A stretch of 32,380 nucleotides of DNA, taken from NCBI GenBank assembly GCA_031459625.1, contig JAVKIH010000027.1:1-32380 (forward strand). The letters run 5' to 3'. The position numbers and the translations under genes are program-made. Below are positions 398 to 11,224 of the stretch, piece after piece. The notes under the pieces were generated by a model, which saw nothing but the letters and a program-made list of their open reading frames with translations, was not told where the DNA came from and did not search any database. Position 1 is the first letter of the stretch. Every line of letters begins with the position of its first letter. Origin of the DNA: Candidatus Geohabitans tengchongensis (GTDB taxonomy: Bacteria > Sysuimicrobiota > Sysuimicrobiia > Sysuimicrobiales > Humicultoraceae).

Positions 398-1140
398 CAC
401 TCGGCCGAGGCGAGCGCCAGGGAGAGCCCGGCCCGCGCCAGCTCCCGCTCCAGCACCGAGCGGTAGTAGCGCCGCCGCGTCTCGGGATCGTCGAGCCCGC
501 CCCAGAAGCGCCGCGCCGGGTTCTTGTAGACCCGGGCGACCGGCAGCTCCACCACGCGCAGCCTCAGCCGCCAGGCCTGGATCCACACCTGGAGGGGGAG
601 GCCGTAGCCCGGCTCGTCCAGCCGCAGCCGCGCCAGCGCCTCGCCCCGGTAGGCCTTGAACCCGCACCAGGCGTCGGTGAGGGGGTACCCGGTGAGGCGC
701 CGCAGGAGCGCCGTCGTCTCGCGGTTGAGGGCCAGGCGGTCAGGGGGCGGCGGGTCGCCTCGCAGCGCCGGGTCGAGGTAGCGGCTGCCCGAGACGATGT
801 CGGCGTCGGCGAGCGCCGCCAGGAAGGCGGGGATGCGGGCGGGCTCGTGCTGGGCATCGCAGTCGATGGTGACCACCCGGCGGTAGCCGCGCTGGACAGC
901 CCAGGTGAAGCCGTCGATGAGCGCCTGCCCGTACCCCAGGTTGTCCGGGTGGGTCAGCACGCGCACCTGCGGGTCACGGGCGGCGGCCTCGGCCAGGATC
1001 GCCGGCGAGCAGTCGGTGGAGCCGTCGTCCACCACCAGGACGTCGGCGGCGGGGACGGCACTGCGCACCTCCGACAGCACCTCCCGCAGGGTGGCCTCTT
1101 CGTTGTAGAGCGGGACGACCACGAGCGCGCGGTTCTCCAT
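397..1140 (-). CDS. Glycosyltransferase family 2 (Dpm1-like)
   Basis: MENRALVVVPLYNEE...VVDDGSTD...NLGYGQAL...TIDCDAQH...GSRY...DAWCGFKAY; GGAGG RBS before ATG 1140. Confidence 0.9.
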   Translation of the reverse strand: MENRALVVVPLYNEEATLREVLSEVRSAVPAADVLVVDDGSTDCSPAILAEAAARDPQVRVLTHPDNLGYGQALIDGFTWAVQRGYRRVVTIDCDAQHEPARIPAFLAALADADIVSGSRYLDPALRGDPPPPDRLALNRETTALLRRLTGYPLTDAWCGFKAYRGEALARLRLDEPGYGLPLQVWIQAWRLRLRVVELPVARVYKNPARRFWGGLDDPETRRRYYRSVLERELARAGLSLALASAE

Positions 1141-1296
1141 GCCTCCAGCCAGTATAGCGCACGCGCTCCAGCCCCCGGACCCGCCGTGCTGCCAGTCCCG
1201 GAACCCGCCGCGCTGTGGGCGGGCTCGAGCCCGTCGGTGCGGGGCGAGGCGGAGCGGATCCGGGGACCGCACCTGCGTGGCCGGGCTCGCGGCGGG

Positions 1297-1334
1297 CTTG
1301 CATATTTATTCGATATCGTGCATGATGATTCACA
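1297..1334 (+). promoter_or_regulatory. Tandem ARG boxes (ArgR operators) overlapping a sigma70 promoter
   Basis: CTTGCATATTTATTCGAT (1297-1314) and CGTGCATGATGATTCACA (1317-1334), 2 bp apart; TTGCAT(1298)-N17-CATGAT(1321); AT-rich patch directly upstream of argG. Confidence 0.8.
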
Positions 1335-1360
1335 TCAGCGTGCGACGGGAGGGGCAGCGC

Positions 1361-2598
1361 ATGACGACGAGTCCACCGCTGTGGAAGCTGACGGCCGTGC
1401 GCCCACCGGGGGTGCGGCGGGTCGCCCTGGCCTACTCCGGCGGGTTGGACTCCTCGCTGTGCGTCGCCCTCCTGCGCGAGGTCTACCGTGTCGAGGAGGT
1501 CGTCCCCATCACCGTGGACGTCGGCCAGGGCGCCGAGGAGCTGGCCGCCGCCGCCCGCAAGGCCGCCGGGCTGGGGATCACCCCGCACGTCGTCGACGCG
1601 CGCGAGGCGTTCGCCCGAGACTGGCTGGCCCCGGCCATCCGGGCCAACGCCGACTACCTGGGCTACCCGGTGGCCACGGCCATGACCCGCCAGCTCATCG
1701 CCCGCATCGTGGCGGAGCAGGCACTGGCCCTGGGGTGCGACGCGCTGGCCGAGGGGTCCAGCGGCAAGGGCAACGACCAGTACCGCATGCACAACGTCTT
1801 CACGCTGTTCGCCCCCGGCCTGCCCGTCCTCGTCCCCGTGCGCGACCTCGACCTGACCCGCACCGAGGAGCAGGCGCTGTGCGCCCACTTCGGGATCCCC
1901 GTGGACGAGCCCATCCCCGGCGGGGACGACAAGACCCTGTGGTGCCGCTCCATCGCCAGCGGCGGCCTGGGCCTGGAGACCGAGATCCCGGACGCGGTCT
2001 GGCGGTGGTACGTCCCCCCCAGCGCGCCCCGGACCGGCCCGTCACCGTCACCCTGACGTTCGCCCGGGGCGTCCCCGTGGCGCTCGACGGCGAGCCGCTG
2101 GCGCTGGCCGACCTGGTGGAGGCGCTCAACGTCCGGGCCGGGCAGTGCGGCGTCGGGCGCATCGACATCCTGGAGGACGGCATCATGGGCCTCAAGTCGC
2201 GGGAGGTCTACGAGGCGCCGGCGGCGACCGTCATCCTGCGGGCCCACCGGGACCTGGAGCAGCTCACCCTGACCAAGGAGGAGGTGCAGTTCAAGCGCGG
2301 GGTGGACCAGGCCTGGGCGGCGCTGGTCTACCACGGGGACTGGTTCCACCCGCTGCGCGAGGACCTGGACGCCTTCATCGCCCGCTCCCAGGAGGTCGTG
2401 GAGGGGATGGTGACGCTGCGGCTGTATAAGGGCAGCGTGGAGATCACGGGGCGCACCTCCCCCCAGGCGCTCTTTGCCCCCCAGCTGCGCTCGATCGCCT
2501 CGGGCGGCTTCGACCAGCGCCTGTGCGGCCCGGCGGCGCAGATCCGCGGCCTGCCCTACCAGGTGCTGGCCCTGCGCCGGGCCCGAACGCCAGGGTGA
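1361..2598 (+). pseudogene. argG: Argininosuccinate synthase, split by a 1-nt frameshift at C7 (2014-2020); may be a sequencing error
   Basis: N-half ALAYSGGLDSS...SGKGNDQYR is in one frame; C-half GVGRIDILEDGIMGLKSREVYEAPAA is in another. One extra C gives a continuous 412-aa protein (YVPPQRAPDRPVTVTLTF). Confidence 0.85.
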
Positions 2599-2690
2599 GG
2601 TCCCGGTGACCGGCGCCGACGGCGCCCCGGCGCCGTCAACGACGACGGCGGGAGGCCGGGGGGACCGCGACGGCCCGAGGAGGCGGTGGC

Positions 2691-4037
2691 GTGAGCAAGC
2701 TCTGGGAGAAGGGCTACCGGCTGCACGAGGCGATCGAGCGCTTCGAGGTGGGGGACGACGTCTGGCTGGACCAGCGCCTGGCCTGGGCCGACCTGCTGGG
2801 CTCCATCGCCCACGCCCGCATGCTCGGCCGCATCGGCATCCTCACCGCCGAGGAGGTGGCGCGCCTGGAGGCGGCGCTGCGTGAGCTGCTGGCCGAGGCG
2901 CGCCAGGGACGCCTCACCCTGACGGTGCAGGACGAGGACATCCACACGAAGGTGGAAGGGCTGCTGGTGGAGCGCCTGGGCGACCTGGGCAAGAAGCTCC
3001 ACACCGGGCGCTCCCGCAACGACCAAGTGCTGGTCGACCTGCGGCTGTACACCAAGCGGGCGCTCCTCGACCTGCAGGAGGCGGTCCTGGCCTGCGCCGA
3101 GGCGCTCCTCGACTTCGCCGCCCGCCACCGCGACCTGCCCATGCCCGGCTACACCCACCTGCAGCGGGCCATGCTCTCCTCGGTGGGGCTGTGGGCCGGC
3201 GCCTTCGTCGAGGCCCTGCTGGACGACCTGACGCTGTGCGAGACCGCCTACCGGCTGAACGACCAGTCCCCGCTCGGCTCGGCGGCCGGCTACGGGGTCC
3301 CCCTCCCTCTCGACCGCGCCTACACGGCGCAGTTGCTGGGCTTCGCCCGGGTGCAGCCCAACGTCCTCTACGTGCAGAACAGCCGGGGGAAGTTCGAGCT
3401 GGCGGCGCTGCAGGCCGCGGCCCAGGTGGCCGTGGACCTGGCGAAGCTGGCCGAGGACCTGCTGCTCTTCACCACCAGCGAGTTCGGCTTCTTCCGCGTG
3501 GCCGAGGAGCTGGCCACGGGCTCCTCGATCATGCCCCAGAAGCGCAACCTGGACGCCGTGGAGCTGGTGCGGGCGCGCTGCCGCTGGGTGATCGGCCTGC
3601 AGGCGCAGGTGGGGACCATCGTCGCCGGCTGCCCCTCGGGCTACAACGGCGACCTGCAGGAGACGAAGCGCCCGCTCATGGAGGGGCTCGACACCGTGAC
3701 GGCCTGCCTGCGCGTCATGGCCCTCACGGTGGCCCACACCACCCCCGACCCGGAGCGGCTGGCCGCCGCCTGCACGCCGGAGCTCTTCGCCACGGACGCA
3801 GCGCTGCAGCTCGTCGCCGCGGGGGTCCCCTTCCGGGACGCCTACCGCCAGGTGGCCACAGGCGTCGTACCGGTGGAGCGGCCCGCCGACCTGGCCGCGG
3901 CCCTGGCCCGGCGCTCCTCCGAGGGGGCCCCGGGCAACCTGGGCCTGGAGGGCGCCCGGGCCCGATGGCAGGCGGAGCGGGCGCGGGTCGGGGAGGAGCG
4001 GGAGCGCTTCGAGGGCGCGCTGGCCGCCCTGGCCTGA
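2691..4037 (+). CDS. argH: Argininosuccinate lyase
   Basis: KLHTGRSRNDQV, MPGYTHLQRA, SPLGSAAGYG, GSSIMPQKRN signature; follows argG. Confidence 0.95.
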   Translation: MSKLWEKGYRLHEAIERFEVGDDVWLDQRLAWADLLGSIAHARMLGRIGILTAEEVARLEAALRELLAEARQGRLTLTVQDEDIHTKVEGLLVERLGDLGKKLHTGRSRNDQVLVDLRLYTKRALLDLQEAVLACAEALLDFAARHRDLPMPGYTHLQRAMLSSVGLWAGAFVEALLDDLTLCETAYRLNDQSPLGSAAGYGVPLPLDRAYTAQLLGFARVQPNVLYVQNSRGKFELAALQAAAQVAVDLAKLAEDLLLFTTSEFGFFRVAEELATGSSIMPQKRNLDAVELVRARCRWVIGLQAQVGTIVAGCPSGYNGDLQETKRPLMEGLDTVTACLRVMALTVAHTTPDPERLAAACTPELFATDAALQLVAAGVPFRDAYRQVATGVVPVERPADLAAALARRSSEGAPGNLGLEGARARWQAERARVGEERERFEGALAALA

Positions 4038-4153
4038 GCCCGGCCGCCGCTGCCCCGGGGAGGGCAACCACGGCCTCCCCCGCAGCCGACGAGGATCCCA
4101 CCGTCCCCCTGCAATAGAACGGGCCCGTCGGTGCGTCTCTTAGTAGGGACGCG

Positions 4154-4648
4154 ATGAGGGTGGAACCGGTGAGTCGGCCTGCTGCCGTCGAGCGCGACTT
4201 CGAAGCGTTCGTCCTCCCCCATCTCGGCTACCTGTACGGCCTGGCGGTCAGGCTGCTCGGCCAGCGCGAGGGGGCCGAGGACCTCGTCCAGGACGCGCTG
4301 CTGCGGGCCTTCCGCGGCTTCCCCCGGCTGCGTCACCACGAGCGGGGCCGGCTGTGGCTCACCCGCATCACCACCCGGGCCTACTACGACCGGTTGCACT
4401 TGGACTTCCTCGACCTCTTCGACAGCGAGAAGGTCATCGCCGTGCTGGCCGCGCTCCCGCCCGGGTACCGCACCGCCCTGATCCTGGCGTACGTGTACGG
4501 CTTCAAGGCCCGCGAGGTGGCCGAGAGCATGCGCGTCCCCCTGGGCACCGTGCTGTCCATGCTCTCGAGGGGCCGCCGGCGGCTGGAACGCGAGCTCTGG
4601 CAGTTCGCCACCACCAACGGACTGCTGCACCGGGAGGCTCGGGGATGA
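4154..4648 (+). CDS. ECF RNA polymerase sigma factor
   Basis: sigma2 AEDLVQDALLRAFR...WLTRI; sigma4 LPPGYRTALIL...GFKAREVAESMRVPLGTVLSMLSRGRRRL; start could be GTG 4169. Confidence 0.9.
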   Translation: MRVEPVSRPAAVERDFEAFVLPHLGYLYGLAVRLLGQREGAEDLVQDALLRAFRGFPRLRHHERGRLWLTRITTRAYYDRLHLDFLDLFDSEKVIAVLAALPPGYRTALILAYVYGFKAREVAESMRVPLGTVLSMLSRGRRRLERELWQFATTNGLLHREARG

Positions 4649-4670
4649 TCACGCACCGGGACGGTCGGAC

Positions 4671-4907
4671 ATGATCACGTGTCGCGAAGCGGTGGCCCGC
4701 CTGTGGGCGTACCTAGACCGCCATCTCGGGCGGGTGGAGGAGGCGGAGCTGGAGGAGCACCTGGGGCTGTGCCTCCACTGCTGCGGCGAGCTGCGCTTCG
4801 CCCAACACCTGCGCGAGCGTCTGCGTGCCTCCGGAGACTCGGCGGTGGACGAGGCGACGCGCCAGCGGCTGGAAGCCTTCGTCAGGGGCATCGGGGAGGT
4901 TGAGTAG
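4671..4907 (+). CDS. Zinc-binding anti-sigma factor (zf-HC2/ZAS, RsrA/RshA-like), soluble
   Basis: MITCREAVARLWAYLD...EEHLGLCLHCC contains HxxxCxxC; directly downstream of the ECF sigma. Confidence 0.88.
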   Translation: MITCREAVARLWAYLDRHLGRVEEAELEEHLGLCLHCCGELRFAQHLRERLRASGDSAVDEATRQRLEAFVRGIGEVE

Positions 4908-5741
4908 ATGGCGGATCCGCACCGTCACCTCGGCGCAGTGGAGTCGGGCGACCTGCTGGGCCAGGACGCCATCAAGGCGTCGGTCCGTGCCGCCTACCGG
5001 GAGATCATCGGCCAGGAGACGGGAGCGGCCGCCGCCCTCTACGATCCGGAGCAGCTGGCGGCGCTCCCCGCCGGCGCCGTCGCCCAGGCGCTGGGGGTCG
5101 GCAACCCGATCCGCCACGCCGACCTCCGGCCGGGCGAGGTGGTGGTGGACCTGGGCTGTGGCGGGGGGATCGACACGATCCTGGCGGCCCGGGCTGTGGG
5201 GCCCCAGGGGCGGGCCATCGGGCTCGACATCCTCCCGGAGATGCTCGAGGCGGCGGCGCGCCACGCCCAGGCGGCGGGCGCGACGAACGTGGAGTGGGTC
5301 CAGGGGGAGCTCGAGGCCATCCCCCTGCCCGACGGCGTGGCGGATGTGGCCATCGCCAACGGCACCGTGAACCTCTCGCCGCGCAAGTCGCGGGTCTTCG
5401 CCGAGGTCTTCCGGATCCTGCGCCCGGGCGGGCGCTTCGTGGCCGCCGACATCGTGGTGGACGAGGACCTGCCGCCGGAGATCCGGACTCACCCGGCCGC
5501 CTGGGCGGGGTGAATCTCGGGAGCGCTGGCGGAGGGGACCTTCGCCGCCAAACTGCGCAAGGCCGGCTTCGAGGCGGTCGAGCGGGTGGAGGAGCGGCCC
5601 TTCGGGCCGGAGCAGTGGGGCGCCTACCCGCTGCTCACTCCGGACCTGCTAGACCTGGTGCGACGGCTCATCCCGCCGGAGCGACAGGCGACGGTGACCC
5701 GCTCGGTGACCTTCCGGGCGCGGAAGCCCGCCGCTCCCTGA
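4908..5741 (+). CDS. ArsM-like SAM-dependent methyltransferase, probable selenoprotein (Sec202 at TGA 5511-5513), 277 aa
   Basis: SAM motif VVDLGCGGGID; LGVGNP; EVFRILRPGGRF. The frame continues past TGA as WAG-U-ISGALAEGTFAAKLRKAGF...SVTFRARKP to TGA 5739-5741, matching the ArsM W-x-G-C-I-x-G-A-L region and C-terminal strand. SECIS-like hairpin downstream. Confidence 0.85.
5514..5550 (+). promoter_or_regulatory. Putative bacterial SECIS element
   Basis: Stem GGCGGAGG (5528-5535) pairs with CCTTCGCC (5539-5546); G-led apical loop GGA begins 22 nt after the UGA. Confidence 0.65.
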
Positions 5742-5774
5742 CCGCCACCATCATCACCGGGAGGTGAGGGAGAC

Positions 5775-6377
5775 ATGGGATACGCCATCGAGGGCAAGTT
5801 GCTGGAAGCCTGCTCGTGCGCAGCCATCTGCCCCTGCTGGGTCGGCCGCGACCCCGACGGGGGCCAGTGCGACGGGCTCATCGCCTACCACTACGACCGG
5901 GGGGAGATCGACGGGGTGGACGTCTCCGGCCTCACCCTGGCCCTGGCGGTCCACATCCCCGGCAACGTCCTCCAGGGCGGGTGGAAGGTCGTGGCCTACG
6001 TCGACCGGCGGGCCACGCCGCGGCAGAAGGAGGCGATCCTGGCAGCCCACACCGGCCGGCTCGGTGGGCCGCTGGCCGACCTGGCGCCGCTCATCGGCGA
6101 GGTGCTGGGCGTGCAGGACGTGCCCATCGACTTCCACATGGCCGAGGGCCGGGGGACGGTCCGCGTGGGCGACGAGATCAGCGGGGAGATGGAGCCCCTG
6201 ACCGACCTGCAGGGGCGGCCGACGACGCTGGTGGACAGCGTCTTCAGCACGATCCCGGGCTCGCCGGCGTTTGTGGGCACGGCGCCCTCGCTGCGGGCGA
6301 CGATCCCCGCCCACGGGATCGCCTGGGCCTTCGAAGGCCGGAACGCCGTCCTGGGCTCGTTCCGCTTCGCCGCCTGA
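5775..6377 (+). CDS. DUF1326-family protein (Cys-rich N-terminus, putative metal binding)
   Basis: EACSCAAICPCW...GQCDG...GEIDGVDVSGL...PGNVLQGGW...YVDRRATPRQKEAI; GGAGG/GAGGGAG RBS. Confidence 0.8.
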   Translation: MGYAIEGKLLEACSCAAICPCWVGRDPDGGQCDGLIAYHYDRGEIDGVDVSGLTLALAVHIPGNVLQGGWKVVAYVDRRATPRQKEAILAAHTGRLGGPLADLAPLIGEVLGVQDVPIDFHMAEGRGTVRVGDEISGEMEPLTDLQGRPTTLVDSVFSTIPGSPAFVGTAPSLRATIPAHGIAWAFEGRNAVLGSFRFAA

Positions 6378-6423
6378 GGCGCCCGTGCGCACCGGGCCGC
6401 TGGGCGACGGGTCCGCACCGTCT

Positions 6424-7206
6424 ATGATCGACGCGCTGCGCACGTCCGACGACCGCCGCTGGTACACTCTGGCGGTAGCCGCGGTGGTCCTCTTCGCCTG
6501 GCTGACCCTGGCGGCCTGGGGGCGGTCCCCCTACGCGGTCTTCCTGGGCCACGGCGACGCCGGGGAGGTGTTCCCTCCGCCAGCGGGATCCTCCCCGGCG
6601 CTCCGCCTCGGCCTCTTCGTCGGCGGGTGGGTGCTCATGACGGTGGCGATGATGCTCCCCGCCAGCCTGCCGCTCCTCACCCTCTTCCGGCGGATGGTGC
6701 ACCACCGCCGCCGTCGCGGGGGGCTGCTCGTCGCCCTGAGTGCGGGGTACCTAGGCGTGTGGGGCCTCTTCGGCCTGGGGGCCTACACCGGCGACCGGGT
6801 GGTCCACGTCGTCGTCGACCGCGCGGGCGCCGGGGCGGCGGCGGCCGCGCTGCTCCTCCCCACGGTCCTGCTGGCCGCCGGGCTCTACCAGTTCACCGGC
6901 TTGAAGGACCGCTGCCTGCAGGCCTGCCGGTCCCCCTACCTGTTCGTAGCCGAACGGTGGCGCGGCCGGCGGCCCGCGCTCGAGGCCTTCCGGCTGGGGG
7001 TGGACCACGGGCTCTTCTGCGTGGGGTGTTGCTGGACGCTGATGCTCCTGATGTTCGCCGTGGGGGTGGGGCACCTGACCTGGATGCTGGTGCTGGGCGC
7101 GGTCATGGGCACCGAACGCGCCGCGCCCTGGGGACGGGCCCTCACCCGTCCCGTGGGCGTGCTGCTGGTGCTCTGGGCCCTGGGCCGCCTGGTGCGCGGG
7201 GCGTAG
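6424..7206 (+). CDS. DUF2182-family predicted metal-binding integral membrane protein
   Basis: WVLMTVAMMLP, AGLYQFTGLKDRCLQACRSP, GLFCVGCCWTLMLLMFAVG; several TM helices; usual partner of DUF1326; start uncertain. Confidence 0.85.
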   Translation: MIDALRTSDDRRWYTLAVAAVVLFAWLTLAAWGRSPYAVFLGHGDAGEVFPPPAGSSPALRLGLFVGGWVLMTVAMMLPASLPLLTLFRRMVHHRRRRGGLLVALSAGYLGVWGLFGLGAYTGDRVVHVVVDRAGAGAAAAALLLPTVLLAAGLYQFTGLKDRCLQACRSPYLFVAERWRGRRPALEAFRLGVDHGLFCVGCCWTLMLLMFAVGVGHLTWMLVLGAVMGTERAAPWGRALTRPVGVLLVLWALGRLVRGA

Positions 7207-7221
7207 TGGCCGGCGCGACGG

Positions 7222-7992
7222 CTAGAGCAGCTTCACCCCGTTGATGGTCAGCTTGAAGGAGCACCCCAGGAACTCGGCGGCCCGCCGGCACATCACCATG
7301 CGCGTGAGGAAGATCTCGAAGTACTCCATCACCGGCGAGCTCTCGGTGTCGATGACCAGTTCGAGGGTGATGGTGCGGCTCTTCTCGTCCACGCGCAGGA
7401 AGGAGTGCTCCACCGCGTAGTTCACCCGGTCGTGGATGTCAAAGGTGGTCGGGTCGGGGTTGCGCACCCGGGTGCGGTGGACGTCCGACTTGTCGGAGAG
7501 GATGACGGCGGCGCCCACCGCGCTCACCGGCTCGCCGTGCGGTTCCTCGTGGTTGCCGATGGCCCCCATGACCACCGCCCGCTCGTCCGGGGCCATCCCC
7601 AGGCGGGCCAGGATCCCACCGGCCAGCACCGCCCCGGTGTGCTCGTGGTTCACCCGACCCACCAGGTTGCCGATGTCGTGCAGGTAGCCGGCCACGGCGG
7701 CGAGCTGGGCCTGGCGGTCGTCGTAGCCCAGTCGCTTGAGGATGTTGTAGGCGATGTTGGCCGTCAGGTTGGCGTGGCGGAAGCCGTGCTCCGTGTAGCC
7801 GATGGCGCCGGTGTACTCGTTGGCCTTCTCGATGTAGGCGGCCACCTCGGGGTCGCGCTTGACCTCCTCCAGCGAGACCCCCGGCCGCTGCGGCGGCGGG
7901 GTGGTCTCGACCAGGGCCCCCGCCGCCTCCTCCGGCGCCGGCGGGGCCGGCGGGACGACCCGCCGGCGGGCCCGCGCCCGCGCCACCCTCAC
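7222..7992 (-). CDS. HD-domain phosphohydrolase
   Basis: GYTEHGFRH...GYLHDIGN...AIGNHEE...LSDKSDVHRTRVR; coupled to yajC. Confidence 0.85.
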   Translation of the reverse strand: MRVARARARRRVVPPAPPAPEEAAGALVETTPPPQRPGVSLEEVKRDPEVAAYIEKANEYTGAIGYTEHGFRHANLTANIAYNILKRLGYDDRQAQLAAVAGYLHDIGNLVGRVNHEHTGAVLAGGILARLGMAPDERAVVMGAIGNHEEPHGEPVSAVGAAVILSDKSDVHRTRVRNPDPTTFDIHDRVNYAVEHSFLRVDEKSRTITLELVIDTESSPVMEYFEIFLTRMVMCRRAAEFLGCSFKLTINGVKLL

Positions 7993-8294
7993 CGCCGCCC
8001 CCCGGCGGCGCGCTCCGGCATCGCCGCCACCCGGCCGCGCACGCTCTGGACGGCGGCGCGGTCGGCCCGCACGCGCACGTTGGGGGCCAGCTCCAGCACC
8101 AGGACGTCGTCCTTCACCTCGAGGATGGTGGCGTGCAGGCCGCCGATGGTGACGACGCGGTCGCCCGGCCGCAGCGCCGCCAGCATCTCCCGGCGCCGCC
8201 GCATCTGCACCATCTGCGGCCGCCAGAAGAGCAGGTACATCAGCACGAAGAAGACGAGCAGCGGGATGAGCCCCGCCAGCTGCTGGCTGGTCAT
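7989..8294 (-). CDS. yajC: Preprotein translocase subunit YajC
   Basis: MTSQQLAGLIPLLVFFVLMYLLFWRPQ...LRPGDRVVTIGGLHATI (C-terminal part of the 7989..9767 ORF). Confidence 0.93.
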   Translation of the reverse strand: MTSQQLAGLIPLLVFFVLMYLLFWRPQMVQMRRRREMLAALRPGDRVVTIGGLHATILEVKDDVLVLELAPNVRVRADRAAVQSVRGRVAAMPERAAGGRR

Positions 8295-8438
8295 CGACAC
8301 GACTCCTCTCCGGGCGCCGCAGCGCCGCCGGCGGACGGCGTCCCGACCGCTCCCGACCGCCCGGGCCCCTCGCCGGGCTGCCGACGCGCCCGCTACAATA
8401 GCACCGCTACCATAGCACGTCTGCGGGGAGGAGGACGG

Positions 8439-8906
8439 ATGGCCGAGGAACGGGAGCTCTCCCGGGAGGAGAAGATCGCCGCCGCGCGCGCCAAGGTGGA
8501 GGCGATCAAGCGGCAGCGGGCGGCTGCGCAGGCCGGGCAGGCCGCGGCGGCGCCCCAGGCCGCGGCGGCGCGGACGCTGGAGGTCCCCGTCTCCTCCGTG
8601 AACCCGGGCGGGCGGCCCGTGGACAAGATCGAGGGGCGCACCGTGGTGGCCTACGGCACCGTGAACCAGGCCGTGGACATCGTCGGCGGGCCGGAGGACC
8701 AGGAGAACCTGAAGAAGCTCCTCGGCGGGATCAGCGGCTATCCCAACCCGCTGCGCCGCAACGCGATCCAGGTGGACTACCGGTACTACCGCGAGGCCCG
8801 ACGGCGGCTGGAGGCGGCCGGCTACCGCGTCGAGGAGCGGGACTACCTCGGGCGGCCCCTCAGCGAATGGACGCCCGAGCGGCGCGGCTGGACGCGGGTG
8901 GAGTGA
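8439..8906 (+). CDS. Hypothetical protein (155 aa)
   Basis: Strong GGAGGAGG RBS before ATG 8439; GC3-biased codons; no family recognised. Confidence 0.75.
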   Translation: MAEERELSREEKIAAARAKVEAIKRQRAAAQAGQAAAAPQAAAARTLEVPVSSVNPGGRPVDKIEGRTVVAYGTVNQAVDIVGGPEDQENLKKLLGGISGYPNPLRRNAIQVDYRYYREARRRLEAAGYRVEERDYLGRPLSEWTPERRGWTRVE

Positions 8907-8954
8907 CGCCCCGGGCACCGGGGCCGCCCACGACCTGACCGCGTCCTGACGGCC

Positions 8955-10235
<1,281 letters not shown>

Positions 10236-10237
10236 CC

Positions 10238-11224
10238 CTGGTCCTGCGCCTCCGCCCCGCCCCGCCCTTCCGGCTCGACCTGACCGTCTGGCTGCTGCGC
10301 CGCCGCCCCCTCTACACTGTGGACTGCCTGGAGGAGGATGCCTACCGCCGCGTCCTCCTCCTCGACGGGCAGGCGGTGACGGTGCGCGTCACCCAGACCG
10401 GCCCGCCCGCGGCGCCACGCCTCCTGGTCGAGGCCGCCGGGACGCCGGCGACGGCCACGCCGGCCATCCGCCGGTGGCTCGAGCGCGTGCTCGGGCTCCG
10501 GGTGGACCTGGCCCCCTTCTACCGCATGGCCGCGTTCGACCCGCGCCTGGGGCCGCTGGCCCACCGCTTCCGCGGCCTGCGGCCGCCCCAGTTCCCCAGC
10601 GTCTTCGAGGCGGTCGTGAACGCCATCGCCTGCCAGCAGGTCTCGCTCGCGCTGGGGCTCACGCTCCTCAACCGCCTGGCGCTGGCCTTCGGCCGCCGGC
10701 CCGCTCGGGGCGGCGGGTGGGCCTTCCCGGCCCCCGAGGACCTGGCGCGCGTCCCCCCGGCGGCGCTCCACCGCCTCGGCTTCAGCCGGGCGAAGGCGGA
10801 GGCCATCGTCGAGCTGGCCCGCGCGGTGCGGGCGGGGCTCGACCTGGAAGGGCTGCGCCGCCTGAGCGACGCGGCGGCGATGGGGCGGCTGCTGGCCCTG
10901 CGCGGCATCGGCCGGTGGAGCGCCGAGTACGTGCTCCTGCGCGGGCTGGGGCGGCTGCACGTCTTCCCGGCCGACGACCTGGGGGCACAGGCCAGCCTGC
11001 AGCGCTGGTTCGGCCTCCCGCACCGGCCGGACCGCGACGAGGTCCAGCGCCTGCTCGCCCCCTGGCAGCCCTACGCGGGGCTGGTCTACTTCCACCTCTT
11101 GCTGGACGGCCTGGCGCGGCGGGGCCTGGTGCTCGGCGGCGGCGCAGACGATGGCGGGGAGGCACCCGAGGCCGGCGCGGGACCTGAAGAGAGCCGTGGC
11201 GCGGCGGGCGGCGGTCCCGGGTAG
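10238..11224 (+). CDS. alkA: DNA-3-methyladenine glycosylase II (AlkA-like HhH-GPD); start codon uncertain
   Basis: FEAVVNAIACQQVS, FPAPEDL, HhH motif LRGIGRWSAEYVLLRGLG, FPADD, WQPYAG. Confidence 0.85.
   Translation: MVLRLRPAPPFRLDLTVWLLRRRPLYTVDCLEEDAYRRVLLLDGQAVTVRVTQTGPPAAPRLLVEAAGTPATATPAIRRWLERVLGLRVDLAPFYRMAAFDPRLGPLAHRFRGLRPPQFPSVFEAVVNAIACQQVSLALGLTLLNRLALAFGRRPARGGGWAFPAPEDLARVPPAALHRLGFSRAKAEAIVELARAVRAGLDLEGLRRLSDAAAMGRLLALRGIGRWSAEYVLLRGLGRLHVFPADDLGAQASLQRWFGLPHRPDRDEVQRLLAPWQPYAGLVYFHLLLDGLARRGLVLGGGADDGGEAPEAGAGPEESRGAAGGGPG

Follow-up and report, generated by a model that had tools for sequence, protein, structure and literature searches.

The locus and its reading frame

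We analysed a 32,380-nt stretch of DNA from Candidatus Geohabitans tengchongensis (contig JAVKIH010000027.1, positions 1 to 32,380; hereafter the window), concentrating on a gene that resembles those of the S-adenosylmethionine (SAM)-dependent arsenite methyltransferases (ArsM) and that is interrupted by an in-frame TGA. The gene is the third of a tight row on the + strand, in which an extracytoplasmic function (ECF) sigma factor, a zinc-binding anti-sigma (ZAS) factor, the methyltransferase, a DUF1326 protein and a DUF2182 protein are encoded in that order (Table 1). A frame scan of the window gave a 201-codon open reading frame (ORF) from the ATG at 4908 to the TGA at 5511-5513. An earlier note on this DNA had claimed that the frame stays open for 75 codons past this TGA, that a stem-loop follows 22 nt later, and that the TGA encodes selenocysteine (Sec). 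The scan bore out the first claim: 75 sense codons follow in the same frame (ISGALAEGTF...FRARKPAAP), ending at TGA 5739-5741. The read-through product has 277 residues, with residue 202 in the context ...HPAAWAG-U-ISGALAEG..., while the other two frames of the 75-codon stretch are interrupted by stops or encode low-complexity sequence rich in Arg, Gly and Pro. The motif at the site, W-A-G-U-I-S-G, matches the U-x-x-G motif of PRK11873-like methyltransferases.

Table 1. Features of the methyltransferase gene and its operon in the window
Feature	Position	Strand	Basis
ECF-type promoter-like motif GCAATAG-N16-CGTC, 17 nt before the ATG of the sigma factor gene	4111..4137	+	Motif searches; putative function
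ECF sigma factor, 164 aa	4154..4648	+	Pfam Sigma70_r2, Sigma70_r4_2
Soluble zinc-binding anti-sigma factor, 78 aa, H-x3-C-x2-C	4671..4907	+	Pfam zf-HC2, 27.2 bits, above cut-off
ArsM-like SAM methyltransferase, predicted selenoprotein, 277 aa with U202	4908..5741 (stop codon included)	+	Family and structure searches, AlphaFold model
UGA predicted to be read as selenocysteine, residue 202, column of CmArsM Cys224	5511..5513	+	Alignment to 4fr0/4kw7; TGA in related loci
Putative bacterial SECIS hairpin, 8 Watson-Crick/GU pairs (5528-5535 with 5539-5546), loop GGA (5536-5538)	5527..5547	+	Fold, covariation, synonymous identity
DUF1326 protein, 200 aa, Cys-rich N-terminus (CSCAAICPCW)	5775..6377	+	Pfam PF07040, 181.7 bits
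DUF2182/PpoB2-family membrane protein, start uncertain (ORF open from 6271)	6424..7206	+	Pfam PF09948, 202.6 bits

Codon 202 in homologous genes

Homologues were collected by a six-frame search of 61 related genomes, including that of the window (G000) and the unpublished genome G018, and 54 of them gave a match at E ≤ 1e-20. Among 30 loci of relatives, the codon aligned to residue 202 was TGA in 26 and TGC or TGT in four. These four are canonical ArsM paralogues: Cys residues cluster at their N-termini, and they carry the motifs LGCGNP, ISNCVINL and WIGC. Species representatives of all phyla provided 60 loci covering the column, 57 with Cys and three with TGA; the latter all come from records titled as Armatimonadota metagenome-assembled genomes. 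On metagenome contigs, 80 loci covered the column (TGC in 66, TGT in 10, TGA in four), and Cys was invariant there in a 30-sequence protein alignment. Because column 202 is Cys or TGA throughout, as the earlier note had expected, the site presents a classical Cys/Sec pair together with TGA-bearing orthologues. One of the TGA-bearing metagenome loci, L114, is 91% identical to the window; its five genes are the same, and so are its TGA and the core of its hairpin, with differing flanks. In addition, a contig from each of two other studies spans 4382-5800 with 37 and 48 differing letters, and the TGA and the hairpin are untouched among the 40 differences listed for those two contigs.

The earlier note had also predicted that standard gene callers would truncate the gene. 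This was found to be so on a large scale: among the best 120 database protein matches, 42 are 225 residues or shorter and all 42 end in AAWAG, whereas 77 of the 78 longer ones have Cys after W-x-G. A whole Armatimonadota gene clade is thus stored publicly as 201-residue fragments cut at the Sec codon, a systematic truncation that was not found described in the literature searched.

A conserved hairpin behind the TGA

The stem-loop named in the earlier note, at 5528-5546, is indeed an 8-bp hairpin with a GGA loop and a spacing of 22 nt, and an extra U5527-G5547 pair is possible at its base. For bacterial selenocysteine insertion sequences (bSECIS), the legend of Fig. 2 in the review PMC13188914 sets limits of 3-9 nt for the loop, 4-16 bp for the upper stem and 16-37 nt for the distance from UGA to loop, and asks for G within the first two positions of the loop and a minimum free energy (MFE) of at most -7.5 kcal/mol. 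The hairpin lies within all of them (GGA, 3 nt; 8 bp; 22 nt; -13.4 kcal/mol). When 5527-5547 was folded alone, the energy of -13.4 kcal/mol corresponded to z = -3.73, with 0 of 200 shuffles as good.

Over 22 orthologues (21 distinct), 98.8% of the cells of the 8-pair helix are paired, and two of its pairs have changed in a compensatory manner (G-C to C-G; G-U/G-C to C-G). None of 500 shuffles matched the observed value on any of five measures, and slid controls pair at 28-72%. Synonymous codon identity was then computed for 17 orthologues. Its peak, 0.867 at residues 206-214, is the highest of 250 intervals (mean 0.589, sd 0.092) and lies exactly over the stem, which supports, independently of the pairing, a SECIS at this site. 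Seven loci of a paralogous Sec clade (clade 2) use another hairpin register, with a shared GCGGAG as loop, 93.9% pairing and two compensatory pairs; these were counted separately because of the different register. An Rfam scan of 5300-5800 at permissive thresholds returned chance-level matches only and no SECIS family.

Selenocysteine machinery in the genome

The genome of the window (2.76 Mb, 47 contigs, 94% complete) encodes the components for Sec insertion that the earlier note had suggested looking for. A tRNA-Sec gene was detected with Rfam (78.7 bits; gathering score, 47), and ARAGORN called the same gene tRNA-SeC with anticodon TCA. The genes selA (561 bits), selB (362 bits) and selD (374.6 bits) were all found above their curated cut-offs, selB being located on contig 23 between selA and the tRNA-Sec gene. 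Across genomes, in a tally including the unpublished G008 and G018, selA was detected in 23 of 26 genomes with a TGA-type copy, and the three misses are 59, 72 and 84% complete; among genomes at least 91% complete without selA, none of five carries a TGA-type copy. Two observations on these genes may be added. The selD gene (contig 1 of G000, 5900-6826, locus L016) has one in-frame TGA itself, so that the selenophosphate synthetase of this genome is probably also a selenoprotein. In G037, selA (G037:C4:42290-43325) matches as two pieces below the cut-off and may be broken, and only a Cys-type ArsM match is present there.

Decoding of the TGA

Concerning translation beyond the TGA, we compared 14 orthologues in 91 pairs. 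The ratio of non-synonymous to synonymous change (pN/pS) was 0.29 in the 70 codons after the TGA and 0.23 in the 140 codons before it; by this measure, the downstream codons are under purifying selection. Between the window and L114, codon differences numbered 13 synonymous and 10 non-synonymous downstream, and 20 and 18 upstream. An AlphaFold model built on a 30-row alignment had a mean local confidence (pLDDT) of 91.0 and a predicted template modelling score (pTM) of 0.88. Residues 209-272 were modelled at a block pLDDT of 88-97 as a helix, a strand (222-231), further helices and a second strand (264-272), and these strands would be the last two of the central methyltransferase sheet. As both follow the TGA, a 201-residue product would miss them.

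These results bear on the possibility that the TGA is an ordinary stop codon or arose by a recent nonsense mutation, the gene being truncated or dead and the downstream frame a relic. Gene callers do give a 201-aa product, and the copies in G023 and G060 appear split in two. On the contrary side stand the TGA in the same column of the 26 relatives' loci, which come from several families of the order, the purifying selection downstream of it, the hairpin conserved with compensatory changes, the full Sec machinery and the two sheet strands that truncation would remove. The contigs of the two other studies also have none of the 40 listed differences on 5511-5513. The TGA in 26 of 30 loci of relatives and in the 91%-identical metagenome contig excludes a base-call error or a recent nonsense mutation, and we regard a dead gene as very improbable. 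As for the split copies, the orthologues at G023:C56:125432-126222 and G060:C14:64597-65396 match as two overlapping pieces in different frames, which suggests a frameshift or an assembly error. Still less probable, to the point of being negligible, is a reassignment of TGA to Trp or Gly in this organism. The open frame alone would agree with it, but the gene and its orthologues terminate in TGA, TAG or TAA, the homologues have Cys rather than Trp or Gly at column 202, and a tRNA-Sec with anticodon TCA is present along with selA and selB.

Several observations weigh against Sec decoding or limit the evidence for it. The wider 76-nt stretch 5505-5580 is ordinary in stability (z = 0.14, 103 of 200 shuffles as good) in this G+C-rich DNA, so the significance of the hairpin lies in the comparative evidence and not in its energy. 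The mean MFE of a fixed 42-nt segment likewise did not separate 29 Sec from 61 Cys loci (-13.75 and -13.41 kcal/mol). The covariation amounts to few events, two compensatory pairs in the main clade and two in the paralogous one, and the helix was scored on the same sequences from which its structure was derived, which flatters it. In the lineage of the window, compared with 13 relatives, pN/pS was 0.59 in the C-terminal part against 0.31 upstream. This lineage has also lost a second Cys, near column 237 (G-x-x-E-C before YPLF), that is present in at least 90% of 30 homologues and may have been a resolving cysteine; because of this loss, some relaxation may have occurred in the lineage. In the window and L114, the residue is Trp (W237, codon at about 5616-5618). 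Finally, a contig from an RNA library of the same study as the possible source of the DNA matches 4100-5800 with 0 differences across the operon, and such contigs cannot prove transcription.

Even so, the Cys/TGA column, the conserved hairpin and the presence of selA, selB, selC and selD support the earlier note in its central claim, and we consider it almost certain, judging from the sequences, that UGA 5511-5513 is decoded as Sec. SelB and Sec-tRNA(Sec) would do the decoding, guided by the hairpin (5527-5547), which lies within the coding sequence 14 nt behind the UGA.

An ArsM fold without the arsenic-binding cysteine set

The primary structure of the 277-residue protein was then examined. 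Pfam recognized class I methyltransferase domains, and the best NCBIfam model was that of arsenite methyltransferase, NF008823 (232.8 bits, E 4.9e-69), with a score below the cut-off of 263. Foldseek searches of the PDB with the model identified an ArsM-type fold, ranks 1-12 all being As(III) SAM methyltransferases (ArsM/AS3MT). The closest solved structures are those of CrArsM, CmArsM and human AS3MT (PDB 4fr0, 4fs8, 6cx6, 5evj and 8xt7), with sequence E values of 8.4e-33 to 3.7e-19, fold E values of 1.9e-21 to 2.4e-18 and TM scores, normalised by query length, of 0.59-0.73. The window protein has in common with these enzymes the SAM-binding motif and W-x-G-[C/U]-x-x-G-A-L. It lacks the C-terminal domain of the algal ArsMs (277 aa against 377-387).

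Passages of the review PMC6138428 state that all As(III) SAM methyltransferases have four conserved cysteines, corresponding to Cys44, Cys72, Cys174 and Cys224 of CmArsM, that the first methylation, from As(III) to the monomethylated MAs(III), needs all four, that Cys174 and Cys224 form the metalloid-binding site, and that the dimethylated DMAs(III) is bound by Cys224 alone. In an HMMER alignment to CmArsM, U202 fell on Cys224, V64 on Cys72 and G152 on Cys174. Residues 1-83 do not contain any Cys, and the sole other Cys of the protein is C84 in the SAM motif DLGCGGG, a position at which most homologues of the 30-sequence alignment have Ser. The window protein thus keeps one of the four cysteines, and keeps it as Sec; with the equivalents of Cys44, Cys72 and Cys174 missing, it has the ArsM scaffold but fails the family signature. 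This is a property of the subfamily as a whole: in a large majority of loci, column 64 is V or I and column 152 is G, the latter in 54 of 57 Cys loci of species representatives and in 80 of 80 metagenome loci. The earlier note had placed the TGA at the catalytic Cys of ArsM. The ArsM-like fold and the position of the Sec stand, but because the four-cysteine signature of arsenite methyltransferases is absent, the functional part of that statement is an analogy.

We considered whether the protein might nevertheless be a true arsenite methyltransferase, in which Sec takes the place of the Cys224-type residue and which confers arsenic methylation or resistance. Its best family match, the twelve top fold ranks and the location of its Sec in the UxxG motif listed for a known family speak for this. 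Some arsenical methylation by a single Sec might also be supported, since in PMC6138428 DMAs(III) is held by Cys224 alone; this point weighs against the reading that we prefer below. On the other side, three of the four cysteines required for the conversion of As(III) to MAs(III) (PMC6138428) are missing, the NF008823 score is under the curated cut-off, and the operon is without ars genes: neither an ars neighbourhood nor ArsR control was found, the neighbours being the ECF sigma, ZAS anti-sigma, DUF1326 and DUF2182 genes. Furthermore, the same genome harbours a four-Cys ArsM paralogue (253 bits on NF008823, itself just under the cut-off of 263), accompanied by arsR and arsN2. We consider a true arsenite methyltransferase unlikely, and hold it somewhat more probable than not that the function is other than canonical As(III) methylation. 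The paralogue lies in an arsenic cluster on another contig (contig 12 of G000, L194 2015-3726), consisting of an ArsR-type regulator, ArsN2 (142.8 bits against a cut-off of 125) and the four-Cys ArsM.

Relation to published selenoproteins

The use of Sec in ArsM-type methyltransferases is not new, as tables in two papers list it. In the review PMC13188914, 'Arsenite methyltransferase' (PRK11873/NF008823, UxxG, 1 Sec) is tabulated with reference to Fomenko et al. 2007 Science, and in PMC2398784, arsenite S-adenosylmethyltransferase is among the selenoproteins of the GOS data, with 8 Sec sequences. Because of these publications, the earlier note's description of a 'hidden' selenoprotein applies to the annotation and not to the literature. 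Like the published UxxG proteins, the window protein combines the ArsM fold with one Sec, located in U-I-S-G at the column that holds Cys224 in CmArsM and Cys206 in human AS3MT, and it has Cys-containing homologues and a SECIS, here a predicted one, directly 3' of the UGA. It differs from the NF008823-type family in its score below the cut-off, in lacking the equivalents of Cys72 and Cys174 and the N-terminal cysteines, and in the location of its gene in a sigma/anti-sigma rather than an ars operon; the cysteines were compared with those of CmArsM. The same table of PMC13188914 lists fused or double forms, NF041537 (ArsM_AhpD_UU), NF041536 (ArsM_DUF2284_UU) and NF047649 (MTase_UXPK_star), cited as Haft and Tolstoy 2025. 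These share the methyltransferase domain and the UxxG Sec position with the window protein. The latter, however, has one Sec, no AhpD or DUF2284 domain and a C-terminus, ...ARKPAAP, without a second Sec, and scores far below their cut-offs (189.8 against 510, 168.1 against 575 and 165.4 against 460, respectively). We did not find the combination of lost arsenic-binding cysteines with a dedicated sigma/anti-sigma operon and promoter described in the literature searched, and Haft and Tolstoy 2025 may cover the subfamily.

Phylogeny of the subfamily

A quick maximum-likelihood tree was calculated from 156 rows, 26 of them with Sec. The 149 rows of the subfamily without Cys72 and Cys174 were separated from the four-Cys ArsMs with a support of 98 in the Shimodaira-Hasegawa-like approximate likelihood ratio test (SH-aLRT). 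Within the subfamily, the seven Sec rows of clade 2 are sister to all others. A 21-row clade (support 96), with 18 Sec and three Cys rows, contains the window and L114, and every row has Cys in a clade of 113 rows in which Chloroflexota dominate. The tree implies several exchanges between Sec and Cys, and its well-supported branches force a minimum of four changes, with L081 counted as Sec though its column 202 is TGC. The clade-2 Sec paralogues (L038-L041 and L043-L045) are 48-53% identical and have no sigma or anti-sigma neighbours.

A sigma/anti-sigma operon with its own promoter motif

The first two genes of the operon encode a sigma/anti-sigma pair, with sigma regions 2 and 4 present in one and the zinc motif H30-LGL-C34-LH-C37 in the other. 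The nearest NCBIfam models of the sigma factor are PRK12533 (87.1 bits) and models of the SigH/SigM/SigE type, all below their cut-offs. Neither protein reaches equivalog level, the sigma factor scoring 84.6 on the SigH model TIGR02947 (cut-off 251.55) and the anti-sigma factor 37.8 bits on the RsrA model TIGR03988 (cut-off 62.5). The TAG stop of the anti-sigma gene (4905-4907) abuts the ATG of the methyltransferase gene.

The order sigma, anti-sigma, methyltransferase is found in all Sec loci of the window's clade, the anti-sigma factor not being matched in L037. The pair is likewise upstream in 46 of 50 Cys-type species loci (L054-L103; there is no room in the other four) and in 52 of 53 metagenome loci having at least 900 nt upstream. 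It is absent beside the seven clade-2 loci and beside seven four-Cys ArsM loci (L046, L047, L049, L050, L104, L107 and L108). In the window and in loci L022 and L114, DUF1326 comes directly after the methyltransferase gene, and six more Sec-type loci have it no farther than about 1.1 kb away; it is a variable accessory gene outside this conserved core. Taken with the decoding of the UGA, we think it highly probable that the gene encodes a genuine Sec-containing methyltransferase of ArsM fold inside a sigma/anti-sigma operon.

A scan of 3900-7500 for sigma-70 promoters and intrinsic terminators found none. In a search of both strands of the 2.76-Mb genome, the strict motif GCAATA-N17-CGTC occurred a single time, at 4111-4137, with 0 matches for the reversed-pattern control. 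Ahead of the sigma gene, the pattern G[CG]AAT-N17-18-CGTC is present in 19 of 20 Sec-type loci and in 43 of 46 Cys-type ones, and on reversed sequence in 0 of 20 and 0 of 46. Since the strict motif occurs once in the genome, the regulon may be this one operon and not a broad stress regulon, and we infer that the operon is autoregulated, its main or only target being itself. A looser pattern, GCAAT-N17-19-CGTC, was rejected, as its 20 matches in the genome are indistinguishable from chance. In many Cys-type loci (L055-L103), the GGAATAA -35 word is preceded, at a distance of about 15-30 nt, by an inverted copy, TTATTCC; the two together resemble a palindrome and could serve as an operator or as a divergent promoter.

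The arrangement resembles SigR-RsrA and SigH-RshA of Actinomycetota, in which an ECF sigma factor is also followed by a small soluble anti-sigma factor with H-x3-C-x2-C. SigR promoters read GGAAT-N18-GTT, and the Cys-type operons of the present subfamily carry a -35 word of the GGAAT type. Unlike those systems, both window proteins are under the equivalog cut-offs, and the -10 word is CGTC. In the ECF classification of PMC7826278, the main text is without the word 'methyltransferase'; the part of its supplement that was covered has 14 mentions, none of them of a ZAS anti-sigma factor together with an ArsM-like methyltransferase.

Possible role of the methyltransferase

Taking into account the fold, the cysteines that are lost and the gene order, we propose the following. 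Sec202 would occupy the position of the metalloid-binding Cys224 of CmArsM, beside the SAM site, as the only conserved chalcogen nucleophile of the protein. The methyltransferase would be the effector of a self-contained module, with the ECF sigma factor and a soluble, RsrA-like zinc anti-sigma factor, transcribed from the dedicated ECF-type promoter at 4111-4137. Thiol-reactive stress would inactivate the anti-sigma factor and turn the operon on, and the enzyme would methylate a soft, thiol-reactive species bound on its single Sec. Candidates are metalloids that already bear further ligands (methylated As(III), for example) and chalcogens, among them selenide and selenotrisulfide; the full four-cysteine As(III) cycle would not be expected of such an enzyme. 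Any single substrate that we might name is unlikely, at best a one-in-several choice, to be the right one.

A different role in thiol or oxidative stress would be the methylation of small sulfur or selenium nucleophiles (H2S, methanethiol or selenide), a detoxification like that by Mdd. The regulators, an RsrA-like anti-sigma factor and a sigma factor with SigH among its nearest models, are of a thiol-stress type and would suit it. MddM1 and MddM2, on the contrary, are 204-210-aa proteins of the UbiG/UbiE type and not ArsM-like, and the paper describing them mentions neither ArsM nor a sigma-factor operon (PMC12904073). The present data do not point specifically to sulfur gases, and there is no evident need for an enzyme Cys or Sec in such a reaction. 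We judge this role to be quite unlikely, and the Mdd S-methyltransferases themselves were set aside as an unrelated family with no sigma or ArsM link (PMC12904073).

The module has two forms, the Sec form in hot-spring Armatimonadota and the Cys form in soil Chloroflexota and Actinomycetota, often with a tandem single-Cys paralogue. Extending our proposal to both, we tentatively suggest, as a possibility rather than a probability, that the Cys/Sec column is the catalytic residue of a distinct and widespread one-nucleophile class of ArsM-fold enzymes. These would not be arsenite methyltransferases. They would be the sole effectors of an autoregulated ECF sigma/zinc anti-sigma thiol-stress switch, removing a thiol-reactive metalloid or chalcogen by methylation. 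If this were true, methylation on a single selenolate or thiolate would be a chemistry not described for the ArsM fold.

On our reading, the gene encodes a genuine selenoprotein and has been mis-annotated; the kind of selenoprotein is known, and the subfamily is an unusual one with a stress switch of its own. The logic of the Sec/Cys pair marks residue 202 as the functional nucleophile in a large uncharacterised subfamily whose members are usually labelled 'arsenite methyltransferase' or 'SAM-dependent methyltransferase'. With its own sigma factor, anti-sigma factor and promoter and without the arsenic-binding cysteine set, the subfamily offers a testable handle on the role of enzymes that are abundant in soils and hot springs.

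Neighbouring genes

The methyltransferase gene of Cys-type operons is often followed directly by a second one. We scanned 38 of 72 computed downstream ORFs; 21 matched methyltransferase domains, 17 of these ORFs being of the ArsM/Methyltransf_31 type. Seven of these tandem ArsM-like genes were aligned, and all of them show Thr at column 64, Gly at 152 and Cys at 202. The second methyltransferases, found mostly in Chloroflexota (L059, L063, L064, L075, L083, L085, L088 and others), are 37-44% identical to the window protein and carry a GFHFHTG motif.

In the window, the DUF2182/PpoB2 protein gave no match in an NCBIfam scan. The operon is flanked upstream, at 847-4037, by genes for argininosuccinate synthase and lyase and downstream, at 7222-11224, by two genes on the - strand, one for an HD-domain protein and one a long ORF with a YajC domain at its end, and by an ORF for an AlkA-type glycosylase.

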